DNA of 64,000 bases from an uncultured Acidobacteriota bacterium (GTDB lineage Bacteria; Acidobacteriota; Thermoanaerobaculia; Multivoradales; UBA5704), in NCBI GenBank assembly GCA_963698025.1, contig OY969112.1:6629101-6693100 (forward strand). The letters run 5' to 3'. How positions within the stretch are numbered: position 1 is the first letter of the stretch; every line of letters starts with the position of its first letter. The position numbers and the translations under genes are program-made. Shown piece after piece: positions 2,204 to 53,998 of the stretch. The notes under the pieces are model-generated. The model made no database searches and had not been told where the DNA came from. It saw only the letters and a list, made by a program, of their open reading frames with translations.

Positions 2204-4099
2204 CGGATCGAGCGCCAGTGAGAAGACGGGTGTCTCTCCCAGGCCCCCGTTCATCGCGGTCCACAGCCCGCCCCCGTTTCGCGTGACGTAGACGCCCCGG
2301 GTCGTGGCGGCGTAGAGCGTGCCCGGGGTCTTCGGGTCCGGCAGGAGATGCCCCACGAAGACTCCGGCCGCCAGGCCTCCCGACGCGGGCTTCCACGTTG
2401 CCCCGCCATCGGAGCTCTTGAAGATCTTCCGCCCCTTTGGCACGTAGATCGACGCGTAGAGCGTCCCCGGTGAGAACGGGTCCACCGCGAGATCCTGGAT
2501 GCTGCCGCGCAGCCCGCTCGCGGTCCGTTTCCAGCTCACGCCGCCATTCGTGCTCTTGAACAGGTGACTGCCCCCCGCGTACACGGTCGCGGGGTTCACC
2601 GGGTCCACGGCCAGGGAGGTCAGAAAATCGAACGGGTCCAGGCCCGGTACCCGCGCCCGCCGCCATTGAGCGGCGCCATCCACGCTCCGGAAGATGACGA
2701 TGGGGATGCCGTTCGCGTCGGAGATCGGAAAGCTGGACCACCCGATGGCGTAGAGCGCGTCCGGATTGGAAGGGGCGAGGGTGAGAGTGAAGACGAACTC
2801 GAGAAACCGGAGCCCCAGGCTGGCCTTCTCCCAGGTCTGTCCGCCGTCACGGGTCTTCAGCACCCAGGCGTTGGTCGCCAGGTACCAGGTTCCCGGCCGG
2901 GAGGGATCGGCCACGATCGCGTTGGCGAGGGGAGAGTTGTTGGGATCTCCGAACGGCGAATTCCAGGTGGCACCGCCGTCCGTGCTGCGGAGCAGGAACT
3001 GAGGCGTGAGCCCCAGTGAAGCGCCAGGCTCCGGCCTGACGATGGTAAAGAGAACTCCTGGCGTGTGGGGGTCGGCCGCGACCGCCGTGATCCCGAGCTC
3101 CCGCAGGCCGTGATTGGCGACCGTCCAGGAGCTTCCGGAGTCGTCGCTGCGATAGACCCCGCCGGCTTCTGTCCCCACGTAGATCCGCCCCGGGGAGCGC
3201 CCGTCCACGGCCAGATCTCTCGCGCCGTAAACCGGCAGGACCGGGGTCCAGCTCGCTCCACCATCGGTGCTCCGAAAAACCCCGTAGGAGCGATCCAGCA
3301 CGTAGACCGTGCCGGACGCGGGATCGATCGCCAGTTTCTCCGCATCCAAGAACACCCCGGCCGGCCCCGTCCAGACCGAGGACCACGTCGCTCCTCGATC
3401 GACGCTCTTGAAGATTCCCCCGAAGCCCGCCGCCGCGTACAGGGTCGCCGGCTGGCGGGGATCGATCGCCAGCGCCTGAAGGGACTGATATCCGCCGTTC
3501 GGGTTCTCGAGGCCGGCGCGGGCCTCCACCCATGTGGCCCCGCCGTCGTCGCTGCGGAAGCCTCCGGCATAGACGACGCGGGCGTCCACCGGATCGACGG
3601 CCAGAACGGACGCGGGGCCCGCGAAGCTCGTCGCCGTCCAGCTTGCGCCCCCATCGGTGCTCTTGAGGATCTGCTGATCGCGCGCCGCGTAGAGAACGTC
3701 CGGCGAGGACGGTGAGATGCGGAACGCCAGGAAAGCGCCTGCGAGCACGGGTCCCGCCCAGTTGGCCCCGCCGTCGGTCGACTTGAACAGGCCGTTGAAG
3801 GTCGTCGCGTACAGGATCCCGGCCCGCGCCGGGTCGGCCGTCAGCTCTCCAACGAACGGCAGGAGCTTGCCGCGCGTGGACCAGCTCGCCGCGCCCGCCG
3901 AGCTTTCGACGATGGTCCCTTGAGCAGTGGCCGCATAGACGCTCCCCGCCTCCCCGGGCGAAACGGCCAGAGCCTGGATCGAAGCCCCCTCGGGGCCGAT
4001 GGACCGCCATTGCGCCGCGGGGGAGAAGGCGGGCAGGGCGAAGAGGAGCAGGACGGTCAGCGGTAGAACCTTGAAGACACGCGCGGGGCTCTGGCTCAT
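2099..4099 (-). CDS. Secreted BNR/Asp-box repeat beta-propeller protein (sialidase/Ycf48-like fold)
   Basis: More than 10 Asp-box motifs (STDGGASWT, STDGGATW, STDGGANW, SDDGGATW, SVDRGATW, and others). Start chosen at internal Met 69 of the ORF (MSQSPARVFKVLPLTVLLLFALPAFSPAAQ, a signal peptide) with a GGAGGA Shine-Dalgarno sequence upstream. The longer ORF-track start has no signal peptide. Confidence 0.8.
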   Translation of the reverse strand: MSQSPARVFKVLPLTVLLLFALPAFSPAAQWRSIGPEGASIQALAVSPGEAGSVYAATAQGTIVESSAGAASWSTRGKLLPFVGELTADPARAGILYATTFNGLFKSTDGGANWAGPVLAGAFLAFRISPSSPDVLYAARDQQILKSTDGGASWTATSFAGPASVLAVDPVDARVVYAGGFRSDDGGATWVEARAGLENPNGGYQSLQALAIDPRQPATLYAAAGFGGIFKSVDRGATWSSVWTGPAGVFLDAEKLAIDPASGTVYVLDRSYGVFRSTDGGASWTPVLPVYGARDLAVDGRSPGRIYVGTEAGGVYRSDDSGSSWTVANHGLRELGITAVAADPHTPGVLFTIVRPEPGASLGLTPQFLLRSTDGGATWNSPFGDPNNSPLANAIVADPSRPGTWYLATNAWVLKTRDGGQTWEKASLGLRFLEFVFTLTLAPSNPDALYAIGWSSFPISDANGIPIVIFRSVDGAAQWRRARVPGLDPFDFLTSLAVDPVNPATVYAGGSHLFKSTNGGVSWKRTASGLRGSIQDLAVDPFSPGTLYASIYVPKGRKIFKSSDGGATWKPASGGLAAGVFVGHLLPDPKTPGTLYAATTRGVYVTRNGGGLWTAMNGGLGETPVFSLALDPLRPGVLYAGRADGLFEYSGSTADIEGALGNNERR

Positions 4100-6433: not shown

Positions 6434-6802
6434 ATGAAGAACATCCTCTTCGTCTGTAGCCAGAACGAGCTGCGCAGCCCGACGGCGGAGCGGGTGTTCT
6501 CCGGGCGGCGGGACATCGAGGTCGCCTCCGCGGGACTCAATCACGACGCGCCTCAGCCGGTGACGCCGGAGCTGCTCGAGTGGGCCGACCTCATCTTCGT
6601 GATGGAGAAGGCCCACTTGAGCCGGATGCGCCGGCGGTTCCGGAAACACCTCAACCGGCAGCGTCTCGTCTGCCTGGACATCCCGGACCTCTACGACTAC
6701 ATGGAGCCGGCCCTGGTAGAGTTGCTGGAGGCCAAGGTCCCGCGACACCTGGGGCTGTCGATCACCCGCGGGCGCGATCAGCCCTTCCGCCCCTTGGCAT
6801 AG
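6434..6802 (+). CDS. Low-molecular-weight phosphatase family protein (LMW-PTP/ArsC-like)
   Basis: N-terminal ILFVCSQNELRSPTAE matches the CX5R(S/T) P-loop signature of LMW phosphatases. Length is 122 aa. Confidence 0.6.
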   Translation: MKNILFVCSQNELRSPTAERVFSGRRDIEVASAGLNHDAPQPVTPELLEWADLIFVMEKAHLSRMRRRFRKHLNRQRLVCLDIPDLYDYMEPALVELLEAKVPRHLGLSITRGRDQPFRPLA

Positions 6803-7260
6803 ATGGCCTCGTGGAAAGGTTTCCCCGCCCGCACGAGGTGGACGGAGCCGAGGGCGGCCAGCCGGCTGAGCGCCACCGAGGCGGTACGGCCGGTGACCGG
6901 CCGGCGCAGGCGCTTCTTGAAGGTCTCGTTGACCTCTCCGGCCATGGCGGAAGGGGTGAACCTCTCGCCGTCCACTTTGCCCGCGATCACTCGGCCGATC
7001 ATCTTGCTGAAGGTCGCCGGCGGGGCGGACTCGTCCGCGCCTTCCACCTTGACCCGCCGCACGACCTCTCCCGCCGCCGTCGCCGCGGTCTTGAAGGCCT
7101 CGTAGCGCTGGCGGATGCTCTCGAGCTCGCCCGCCCGCAGGGCGCGCTGTTCCCGGTGGAAGACCTCCTGCTGGGCATGGAAGGCTTCCTGGCCTTCGAG
7201 TTGCCGGACCTGCGCTTCCAGATCCTTCAAGACCTGGGCAATAGAGAGATCGGAGCTCAT
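6778..7260 (-). CDS. Hypothetical protein (160 aa)
   Basis: Start at internal Met 39 of ORF 6778..7374 (MSSDLSIAQVLKDLEAQ...), preceded by a GGGAGGAAG Shine-Dalgarno sequence. Protein-like composition and no recognisable domain. Overlaps the 3' end of 6434..6802 by 25 nt (convergent). Confidence 0.45.
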   Translation of the reverse strand: MSSDLSIAQVLKDLEAQVRQLEGQEAFHAQQEVFHREQRALRAGELESIRQRYEAFKTAATAAGEVVRRVKVEGADESAPPATFSKMIGRVIAGKVDGERFTPSAMAGEVNETFKKRLRRPVTGRTASVALSRLAALGSVHLVRAGKPFHEAIYAKGRKG

Positions 7261-7548
7261 CGCTTCCTCCCGGCCGGTTTGCGAACATGCGTCATCGGAT
7301 TCAGGTCGCAACAGTACCTCGGCAGCGGGCCCTCCGTCCAGTCCGGCGGCTCCACTGGGCTGACGATGCGTCATATCTGCCGGCGGCGAGAAAGAATCCC
7401 GGTCCTTGGGAACGAGATGCCAAAAAAATGGCGCGACCTCTCTGGAATCGCTTCAAAGAACGGAACGATGCATCAAGCGACGCCGAGATGCGACAGTTTT
7501 CGCGGTAAGATGTATCAATCCTGGAGGTGTGACGTCAAATGAATCGGC

Positions 7549-7691
7549 GATGCGACATATCCGGCGGAGTTGCGCCGTATCCAGAGGAGATGAAGCGTCG
7601 CCGGTGGAGATGATGCGTAGTCGATTGGGTATGCGGCGCCGTCTAGAGACGATGCATCATCTCCCGGAGAGATGCGCCGTATCTCCGGGCG
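7549..7691. repeat. Tandem array of seven degenerate 20-21-bp direct repeats (approximately GATGCGNCGTATCNCCGGNGGA) upstream of fhs
   Basis: Units begin at 7549, 7569, 7589, 7609, 7630, 7651 and 7671: gatgcgacatatccggcgga, gttgcgccgtatccagagga, gatgaagcgtcgccggtggag, gatgatgcgtagtcgattgggt, tatgcggcgccgtctagagac, gatgcatcatctcccggagag, gatgcgccgtatctccgggcg. Related single copies lie at 7363 (gatgcgtcatatctgccggcgg), 7487 and 7728. Confidence 0.6.
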
Positions 7692-7867
7692 TCACGACAC
7701 CGTCCCGTTCTGTCGCTTCATACGCTGTTGCGTTGCATCATATCCAGGGGCTCTGCATCAGAGAGGCGAGCGCTGAATGAATCCGCGCTTGTCGAAACCG
7801 CCCGGATTGGCGATGATCCCCCTCTCACCGCACTTCCGCGAGACTTCCGCGAGGAGGGGAGCCGACC

Positions 7868-9535
7868 ATGGCGTCTGACATCGAAATCGCGCAGCAGGCC
7901 AAGCTCGAACGGATCACCACGGTCGCCGCGAAGCTGGGGATTCCCGAGGAGCACCTCGAACCCTACGGCCACACCAAGGCCAAGATCTCGCTGGAGTATC
8001 TGAACGGTCTCGCCGGCCGGCCGGACGGCAAGCTGATCCTGGTCACGGCGATGACGCCGACGCCGGCCGGCGAGGGGAAGACCACCACCACCGTCGGCCT
8101 CGGCGACGCCCTGAACCGCATCGGCAAGAAGGCGGCGATCTGCCTGCGCGAGCCGTCGCTCGGGCCGGTGTTCGGCATGAAGGGGGGCGCCGCCGGCGGC
8201 GGCTACGCGCAGGTGGTGCCGATGGAGGACATCAACCTCCACTTCACCGGCGACTTCAACGCCATCGCGCTGGCCAACAACCTGCTGGCGGCGATGCTGG
8301 ACAATCACATCCACCAGGGGGGCGAGCCGGCGATCGACGTCCGGCGCATCGCCTGGAAGCGGGTGATGGACATGAACGACCGGGCGCTGCGCGAGATCGT
8401 CGCCGGCCTCGGCGGCGTCGCCAACGGCTTTCCGCGCCAGGACGGCTTCGACATCGTGGTCGCCTCCGAGGTGATGGCGATCCTCTGCCTCGCCACCTCG
8501 CTGGCCGATCTCAAGGCCCGCCTGGGCAACGTCGTCGCCGCCTACACGCGCGACCGCCAGCCGGTGCGCGCCCGCGACCTCCAGACCCACGGCGCGATGG
8601 CCGTGCTGCTCAAGGACGCCATCAAGCCCAACCTGGTGCAGACGCTGGAGAACAACCCCGCCTTCATCCACGGCGGGCCGTTCGCCAACATCGCGCACGG
8701 CTGCAACTCGGTGACCGCCACCCGGGCGGCGCTGAAGCTCGCCGACTACGTGGTCACCGAGGCCGGCTTCGGCGCCGATCTGGGGGCCGAGAAGTTCGTC
8801 GACATCAAGTGCCGCAAGGCGGGGCTGAAGCCGTCCGGGGCGGTGATCGTCGCCACCGTCCGCGCGCTCAAGTACCACGGCGGCGTGGACCTGAAGAACC
8901 TCACCGAGGAGAACCTGGAGGCGCTGGAGAAGGGGATGGCCAACCTCGAGCGCCACATCGAGAACGTGCGGGATCACTACGGCATCCCCTGCGTGGTGGC
9001 GGTGAACCGCTTCAGCTCCGACACCGCCGCCGAATTCGAGCGGGTGCGGTCGCGGCTGGCGGAGAAAGGGGTCACCGCCGTGCTCGCCTCGCACTGGGCC
9101 GAGGGTGGGAAGGGCGCCGAGGACCTGGCGCGGGCCGTGGTCGAGCTCTGCGACCGCGCCCCGAGCGTCCGGTTCGTCTACGACGACGCCGACCCGCTCT
9201 GGGAGAAGATGGAGAAGATCGCCACGAAGGTCTACCGCGCCTCGGCCGTGACCGCGGACTCCAAGGTGCGCGAGCAGATCGCCCGTCTGCAGGCCGACTA
9301 CGGCCATTATCCCGTCTGCGTGGCCAAGACCCAGTACTCGTTCTCGACCGACCCCAGCCTGCGCGGCGCCCCCACGGGCCATACGATCAACGTGCGCGAG
9401 GTGCGCCTGTCGGCCGGCGCCGAATTCGTGGTGATGATCTGCGGCGACGTGATGACCATGCCCGGCCTGCCCAAGGTGCCCGCCGCCTGCCGCATCGACA
9501 TCGACGACGACGGCAGGGTGGTGGGGCTGTTCTGA
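7868..9535 (+). CDS. fhs: Formate--tetrahydrofolate ligase
   Basis: 555 aa. [45 protein letters not shown]...[21 protein letters not shown]... shows the P-loop and is collinear with FTHFS throughout. A GAGGAGGGGAG Shine-Dalgarno sequence is upstream. Confidence 0.95.
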
Positions 9536-53882: not shown

Positions 53883-53998
53883 CCCGGGATTGAAATCCCG
53901 GGCTACTCACGGCCGTCCCATCCGGGACTTCCCAAAACCCTTTGCCTCCGAAGCCCCGGGAGGGGCGACTGTCGGTAGCCCGGGATTTCAATCCCGGG
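53883..53998. repeat. Pair of inverted 25-nt elements (gcccgggattgaaatcccgggctac) flanking 76 bp; MITE-like, and each terminus is itself palindromic
   Basis: cccgggattgaaatcccggg at 53883-53902 and cccgggatttcaatcccggg at 53979-53998 (the exact reverse complement, including the flanking gc...ctac). Lies between the ECF sigma start and the cytochrome-like lipoprotein gene. Confidence 0.6.

Follow-up and report, generated by a model that had tools for sequence, protein, structure and literature searches.

A long row of phased binding sites (10 to 31 in the case considered here) that is attached to the gene of its own binder is an arrangement known from plasmid centromeres and iteron origins of replication. 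Here we describe a candidate for such an arrangement on the chromosome of an uncultured Acidobacteriota bacterium of the class Thermoanaerobaculia (GenBank assembly GCA_963698025.1). The DNA analysed is a stretch of 64,000 nucleotides of contig OY969112.1 (positions 6,629,101 to 6,693,100 of the forward strand), called the window from here on, and positions in it count from its first letter. In the window, a degenerate array with a period of about 20 base pairs (bp) lies between the gene fhs and a divergent gene for an uncharacterised protein of 160 amino acids (aa). The array is conserved together with the latter gene and probably consists of DNA sites for its product.

In the TubR/tubC and ParR/parC systems, a small dimeric DNA-binding protein covers tandem repeats that precede its own operon, forms a superhelical or ring-like filament on them, and is also autoregulated. 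These arrays have 7–10 units at periods of 11–12 bp, are plasmid- or phage-borne, and are always found with a TubZ or ParM gene. The array of the window is similar in that it lies upstream of the gene of a small, predicted DNA-binding protein, but it has a longer period and no gene for a cytomotive nucleoside triphosphatase (NTPase) nearby, and a tblastn search for the protein found no homolog on plasmids or phages. Iteron origins (pPS10 RepA, F RepE, R6K pi, RK2 TrfA) contain 17–22-bp direct repeats beside a winged-helix gene that has a separate promoter operator. Iterons number 3–9 and are found on plasmids, beside DnaA boxes and an AT-rich element. Here, too, direct repeats recur at roughly two helical turns (window: 20.35 bp; 50 of 55 loci: 18.8–21.4 bp). 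Unlike in the iteron/Rep systems, however, the protein has a single winged helix in its AlphaFold2 (AF2) model and no Rep match in Pfam or NCBIfam, and the locus is chromosomal and has no GC-skew switch. Among chromosomal regulators, ArgR binds ARG boxes of 18 bp plus 2–3 bp and GlpR/DeoR bind 20-bp tandem operators, in both cases cooperatively, at 2–4 sites that lie in target promoters and are uncoupled from the regulator's own gene. The centre-to-centre spacing of 20–21 bp is shared with the array described here, which differs in having 10 to 31 sites that are always attached to the putative regulator's own gene.

The StbA/stbS system of the conjugative plasmid R388 has ten 9-bp repeats with an 11-bp period. 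StbA contains a helix-turn-helix (HTH) domain of the winged-helix, PadR-like type and acts as a repressor of its own promoter; each dimer occupies two repeats, a filament has been proposed, and there is no NTPase partner (10.1101/2022.04.29.490116, where TubR is also summarised). As in StbA/stbS, the direct repeats of the window are found directly upstream of the gene of a small protein with a predicted HTH-class domain, with no partner NTPase. The differences are a period of 19–21 bp, the number of units (10 to 31), and the chromosomal location. The domain order is also reversed compared to StbA, with a coiled coil predicted at the N-terminus and the winged helix at the C-terminus, and no sequence homology was detected. 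The unit core at 7733 (GTTGCATCAT) looks similar to the stbDR consensus, C/TTGCATCAT, probably by coincidence. Taken by its architecture, the module of gene and array would be analogous to the plasmid centromere and iteron systems rather than a member of any of them. In the searchable literature (on DUF3253, on repeats in Thermoanaerobaculia, and on similar architectures), no prior description was found of a chromosomal, partner-less module that is conserved across a class of soil Acidobacteriota.

The array and the gene beside it

A single-sequence search finds 112 homologs of the 160-aa protein, and a profile search finds at least 737 clusters of homologs at 90% identity. All are 150–220 aa long, and where a source is named, it is Thermoanaerobaculia or Acidobacteriota. 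For eight homologs (87–44% identity) the surrounding contigs were inspected, and each has its own array with a period of about 20 bp upstream. The intergenic regions that hold these arrays are unusually long, mostly 480–800 bp; that of locus L088 is 242 bp as called. In L088, a gene call of 865 aa (162–2759) overlaps the array (about 2545–2790), and the 3' end of this call is probably spurious or extended too far. Other neighbours differ between the eight loci, and include genes for ferritin/Dps, a low-molecular-weight (LMW) phosphatase, a haem-binding protein, a PEMT-family protein, RHS, and others. A metagenome scan contributed 62 further loci. A repeat-lag test was applied to the 59 loci whose upstream sequence is 300 bp or longer, using the best autocorrelation lag within 8–45. 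The best lag is 19–21 or 38–42 in all 59, down to 28% protein identity, compared to 12 of 39 downstream control regions (9 of these 12 at 39 or 42, that is, at multiples of three). Gene and array co-occur obligately, and the array almost certainly belongs functionally to the 160-aa gene. An earlier interpretation of the window, made from its letters and open reading frames (ORFs) without database searches (the sequence-only reading), had treated the opposite-strand gene as a hypothetical bystander; across orthologs it is instead the conserved partner of the array. The same reading had considered that the repeat might be a minisatellite found at many unrelated loci. It does recur widely, but always beside one gene family, and with a unit sequence that is specific to the lineage.

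The arrays span 10 to 31 units among the loci, and many of them show a super-period of 40–41 bp. As an example of a very regular one, the array of L123 has 31 near-identical units of exactly 20 bp (GTTGCGGTGCATCCCCAGAC), while that of L092 has 22 units (TTGCGACGRCTAAGATTnnn). In L126 the unit is 21 bp long, and in one clade at about 40% identity (L146, L142, L144, L149) the period is 19 bp (CTTGCGGTGAAGAAGnnnA).

In the window itself the units are so degenerate that Tandem Repeats Finder does not detect the array even at a score of 30, and autocorrelation and a weight matrix were used in its place. The self-identity of the array at lag 20 is 0.45–0.49, with z = 5.5–6.7 against dinucleotide-preserving shuffles (shuffle maximum over all lags: z = 4.3). 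This is the highest lag-20 value in the whole 64 kb, taken in segments of 225 bp, and lag 20 is the sole top-ranked lag in the window that is not divisible by 3. The weight matrix was trained on ten units, with two isolated copies held out. Units within the array all score at least 12 and the held-out copies score 18.6 (7365) and 17.9 (7732), whereas the scores elsewhere in the window reach at most 15.0. The pattern [AT][TC]GCNNC[AG] occurs 26 times per kb in the main array compared to 2.7 times per kb across the whole window. The seven consecutive units of 20, 20, 20, 21, 21, 20 and 21 bp that had been noticed at 7549–7691 are present, as are isolated copies beyond them (7365, 7487 and 7732). 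The extent had been underestimated, however: the seven units fall within the main array of Table 1, which in turn is part of a lattice of 18 sites from 7287 to 7761. Units at 7467, 7487 and 7509 extend the array upstream of the seven, further on-lattice cores flank them at 7449, 7693, 7714, 7733 and 7754, and three gene-proximal cores (7287, 7306 and 7366) lie near the divergent gene. One lattice position, near 7531, is weak. The 18 sites fit a single lattice with a period of 20.35 bp (R = 0.975 for this hand-picked list; R = 0.75 at 20.25 bp for uncurated sites found by regular expression). It had also been proposed that the consensus covers the entire 20-mer, but conservation is confined to the first ~10 nucleotides of the unit, (G)ATGCnnCA. 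Two further points of the sequence-only reading stand. No believable ORF spans the array, as the 124-aa ORF that overlaps it has no Pfam match and a period of 20–21 bp is incompatible with coding. Nor is it an array of clustered regularly interspaced short palindromic repeats (CRISPR), in which near-identical repeats of 23–50 bp are separated by unique spacers of similar length; the units here are degenerate and contiguous at a 19–21-bp period, with no spacers.

The 7-mer that recurs most often is, in clade after clade, a variant of TGCnnCA, and its modal spacing is 20 or 21 bp; TGCGTCA, TGCATCA, TGCGACA, TGCGGCA, ATGCCGC, TGCTGCA and TTGCGGT are among the forms found. The window was aligned with four relatives at 87–89% protein identity (L082, L084, L093 and L094). 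In this 5-way alignment the arrays are orthologous at the level of single units, and insertions and deletions amount to complete units, of 20 or 40 bp. Invariant cells make up 67 of 90 in the core compared to 66 of 144 in the spacers (p = 2e-5). Within the units, 89–94% of sites show no change at the G, the C and the later C, compared to 22% at the central base and 28–61% at spacer positions. The core is more conserved than the spacers, which is the mark of selection on a short recognition motif. The isolated core at 7366 has no variation at its TGC and C positions in the same alignment. Phasing is widespread, too. With uncurated core positions, 50 of the 55 loci have a best period of 18.8–21.4 bp (median 20.35 bp), and p is at most 0.01 in 39; with hand-deduplicated positions, R is 0.8–0.99. 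Cores in flipped orientation are also found within the arrays, and 55 of 84 are centred within ±1 bp of the forward lattice, where about 12 would be expected if they were uniformly placed. The lattice thus holds regardless of core orientation. This favours recognition of duplex DNA, since a flipped site in RNA is a different sequence.

The two cores closest to the 160-aa gene share the 20.35-bp lattice with the distal array and are kept as a pair, 19–21 bp apart, in L082, L084, L087, L093 and L094. They are a candidate autoregulatory operator of this gene. L082, L084, L093 and L094 also carry a GC-rich insert of 73 nucleotides with hairpin potential (alignment columns 21–93), which separates the proximal pair from the ribosome-binding site of this gene; the window has no such insert.

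Table 1. Positions of the array, its parts and the partner gene in the window
Feature	Position	Strand	Remarks
Gene for the 160-aa protein	6781–7260 (6778..7260 with stop codon)	-	Conserved partner of the array
Proximal core pair	7287..7313	+	ATGCGTCA at 7287 and TCGCAACA at 7306, spacing 19 bp
Isolated core, ATGCGTCA	7366..7373	+	Lattice index 4; the copy placed at 7363 by the sequence-only reading; held-out matrix score 18.6
Main array	7449..7773	+	16 consecutive lattice positions, 15 with a recognisable core
Core starts of the main array	7449, 7468, 7488, 7510, 7550, 7570, 7590, 7610, 7631, 7652, 7672, 7693, 7714, 7733, 7754		

The predicted protein and a proposed mode of assembly

An AF2 model of the 160-aa protein, built from an alignment of 42 sequences, has a predicted local distance difference test (pLDDT) score of 84. 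It consists of a long helix (residues 3–62), a disordered linker (about 63–83, with pLDDT below 50 at residues 65–75), and a winged helix (84–156). The winged helix is canonical and its helix 3 is rich in arginine. Foldseek matches of the model include Fur/PerR/Zur, MecI/BlaI, MarR, GntR, ArsR, PadR-like proteins, Orc1/Cdc6, RTP and 2ns0 (E ≥ 0.018), the last of which we take to be the solved representative of DUF3253. The window protein has no Pfam match at E ≤ 0.01, but 17 of the 42 family members match DUF3253 (PF11625) at E ≤ 1, with a best value of 5.5e-6, in the C-terminal domain only. Judging from these profile matches, the C-terminal winged helix (~75 residues) may be distantly related to DUF3253, with which it shares the fold. 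In the literature searched, no function and no repeat array is recorded for DUF3253.

In the N-terminal helix, H28, E32, H35 and Q38 are invariant and E25 is nearly so. These residues make up a pair of ExxH motifs at a distance of one heptad; additional QEAFHxx heptads are present in some homologs (P0103, P0108). This conserved ExxH helix has no Pfam match. It is possible that the ExxH pairs form a metal site in a predicted coiled coil. The window protein and three relatives have no match in PADLOC or NCBIfam, and a profile search against PDB sequences returned only designed helical repeats.

We consider it probable, at about two in three, that the array is a phase-locked lattice of duplex DNA sites (TGCnnCA every ~20.35 bp, over ~0.5 kb) for the 160-aa protein. 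Protein and array would then form a self-contained module, in which an autoregulatory operator is continued into a long nucleoprotein lattice. The long N-terminal helix would dimerise as a coiled coil and carry two winged helices on flexible linkers of ~20 residues, each reading one 7-bp core in either orientation. One dimer would cover two neighbouring units, which fits the frequent 40–41-bp super-period. Adjacent dimers might pack at a fixed centre-to-centre distance into a continuous nucleoprotein filament over 0.3–0.6 kb, and binding at the two gene-proximal sites (7287 and 7306), which would overlap the gene's own promoter region, could provide autoregulation. The invariant Glu/His pairs of the coiled coil may bind metal or sense the redox state and in this way modulate assembly.

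Several observations weigh against this reading or limit it. The lineage period is 19, 20 or 21 bp, and strict same-face helical phasing can therefore not be the constraint; a period of 20.35 bp corresponds to a rotation of about -22 degrees of the site per unit. The sequence-only reading had proposed a protein-binding array of the iteron or cooperative-repressor type with all sites on one face of the helix; the kind of array is supported, the strict phasing is not. Because the period is systematically below 21 bp, and 19 bp in one clade, the constraint looks like a fixed spacing of protomers. The phase coherence of isolated sites could in part be a passive legacy of decay by substitution only, together with indels of whole units. 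A pseudo-palindromic core of 7 bp is also too short for two conventional HTH half-sites. Scans of the window, L092 and L089 located no sigma-70-like promoter, so the overlap of operator and promoter is only a candidate. Finally, helix-3 residues and unit sequence change together between clades, but this covariation is confounded by phylogeny and is given little weight.

A more far-reaching version is that the module is a hitherto undescribed chromosomal nucleoprotein organelle of the Thermoanaerobaculia, in which a metal- or redox-responsive protein with coiled coil and winged helix polymerises over a private lattice of 0.3–0.6 kb with 10 to 31 sites. We regard this as speculative and rather doubtful. 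If it were true, the organelle might be a switchable chromosomal anchor or centromere-like site, a roadblock for replication or transcription, or a buffer that titrates free protein in cis, and it would work without a partner NTPase and independently of plasmids. On the favoured reading, what looked like an anonymous minisatellite becomes a two-part module, consisting of an uncharacterised protein family (the 737 or more clusters mentioned above) and a cognate array for each member. Such modules would be a natural series of co-evolving protein/site pairs for studies of winged-helix specificity, and might amount to a new type of structure for chromosome organisation or regulation in a phylum that has hardly any molecular genetics.

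Alternative explanations

The array might act as RNA that is bound by the adjacent protein, for example as a very long 5' leader of the 160-aa gene, a divergent sponge of the CsrB type, or a repeat similar to type III antitoxins. In the window, folding compared to shuffles gives z = -3.8 for the plus strand and -1.6 for the minus strand, but this does not carry over to other loci: in a set of eight arrays the values lie between -8.7 and +1.6, and neither strand is consistently favoured (L089: +1.3/+1.5; L092: -1.9/-0.8). RNA structure is not conserved across the loci tested, and arrays that fold strongly do so on both strands, as palindromic units would. One terminator-like hairpin between array and gene is within shuffle expectation; neither it nor the GGA motif is conserved in the 5-way alignment. 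Flipped cores that keep to the lattice make no sense for single-stranded recognition. The units are 19–21 nucleotides long, whereas type III antitoxin repeats have 34–45, and the protein is a predicted winged helix with no PADLOC match rather than a ToxN-like nuclease. Rfam offers no family for the array either, and the same holds for twelve other arrays. We therefore find the RNA explanation unlikely. More specific candidates of this type were rejected individually. Type III toxin-antitoxin systems have a repeat RNA on the same strand, a terminator before the toxin gene, and an endoribonuclease of the ToxN/AbiQ fold; for a ToxIN-like system the coiled coil plus winged-helix fold, the missing PADLOC match, the unconserved terminator and the flipped units do not fit. 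Sponges of the CsrB/RsmZ type have many GGA motifs in hairpin loops and an Rfam match. A CsrA sponge was considered here due to GGAGAUG in the units, and was rejected as GGA is absent from the units of most lineages, folding is not conserved, and there is no Rfam match. A structured RNA in general was set aside since the folding z-scores are inconsistent across loci and strands. A further explanation is that the array controls fhs, as a 5' leader, a riboswitch (ZTP, THF or glycine) or an operator array. Position is what speaks for it: ~95 bp separate the end of the lattice from the start of fhs, and the cores read on the fhs strand. At gathering thresholds, the only Rfam match in the whole window is Acido-Lenti-1 at 53883. 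At E ≤ 10, the region 7200–7900 has only chance matches to microRNA, small nucleolar RNA and Guanidine-III models, with E ≥ 0.25 and far below threshold, and no ZTP, THF, glycine or other leader stands above chance. Furthermore, a weight-matrix scan upstream of 80 fhs loci from other genomes (Fhs protein identity 68–87%) found no comparable cluster, with at most three scattered matches per locus, and at the closest locus, from an Acidobacteriota metagenome-assembled genome (MAG) with 87% identity, the upstream region is entirely different from that of the window. Conversely, orthologous arrays are present at loci where fhs is absent, with a gene for ferritin/Dps or the LMW phosphatase as the downstream neighbour. 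Control of fhs can for practical purposes be dismissed as the primary role of the array, and in annotation the region should not be read as an fhs leader. A secondary effect of the array on fhs transcription in this single lineage is possible.

The period and the direct repeats also bring to mind a cis-acting site for replication or segregation (origin iterons or a centromere) that is served by machinery encoded elsewhere, with the adjacent protein as an initiator, an adaptor or an unrelated regulator. Rep initiators have two winged-helix domains and Pfam families of their own, whereas this protein has one such domain and no Rep match in Pfam. A tblastn search found no homolog in 72,556 plasmids (PLSDB) or 50,697 phages, the contigs around the loci are chromosomal and reach 8.7 Mb in the case of L091, and none of the varied neighbourhoods examined contains a gene of the ParA, ParM or TubZ type. 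The GC skew does not switch at 7.5 kb, and no AT-rich unwinding element or DnaA boxes were seen by eye. An origin or centromere of this kind is thus improbable. Resemblances to DnaA boxes, sigma-54 sites and ARG boxes, also noted by eye, fail to hold across lineages and were rejected. The last alternative is a neutral minisatellite in decay, whose place in this intergenic region is accidental. The units of the window are indeed very degenerate, and slippage of whole units is evident from the 20- and 40-bp indels and from the near-identical units of L123. A neutral repeat would, however, not be expected upstream of every ortholog tested, down to 28% identity, nor with a core that is conserved while the spacers drift and in which the central base is free and its flanks are fixed. 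Clades also differ in unit sequence, yet keep the period and the TGCnnCA core. These findings all but refute the neutral explanation.

fhs and other neighbouring genes

The fhs gene (7868–9535) lies between the array and a convergent dps/ferritin gene only in the lineage of the window. In L082 the gene order is as in the window minus fhs, and the array is kept. L084 also has an array but no fhs; here, the genes for ferritin and the LMW phosphatase are found beyond the array, and a gene for a BNR-repeat protein is found on the other side of the partner gene. The dps/ferritin gene is near in the three closest contexts and not in distant ones. A search by exact sequence found no record of the Fhs protein of the window. 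Apart from the Acidobacteriota MAG mentioned above, the nearest Fhs proteins (about 75–79%) are from MAGs labelled Burkholderiales or Betaproteobacteria, and from one labelled Thermoanaerobaculia. Gene order and sequence relationships suggest that fhs came to this locus by insertion or horizontal transfer. Directly upstream of its ribosome-binding site there is a perfect direct repeat of 2 × 11 bp (7832–7853, ACTTCCGCGAG ACTTCCGCGAG). It bears no relation to the 20-bp units, and the region upstream of the closest fhs homolog (L001) lacks it.

On the other side of the array, an LMW phosphotyrosine-phosphatase-like gene (6434–6802, plus strand) and the 160-aa gene converge, with a 3' overlap of 25 bp (6778–6802). 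Elsewhere in the window, an Acido-Lenti-1 RNA (RF01687) is found at gathering score at 53883–53929 on the plus strand, which speaks for an Acidobacteriota origin of this DNA. L091 has one as well (4002–4046, minus strand), in this case ~0.5 kb downstream of the homolog of the 160-aa gene.
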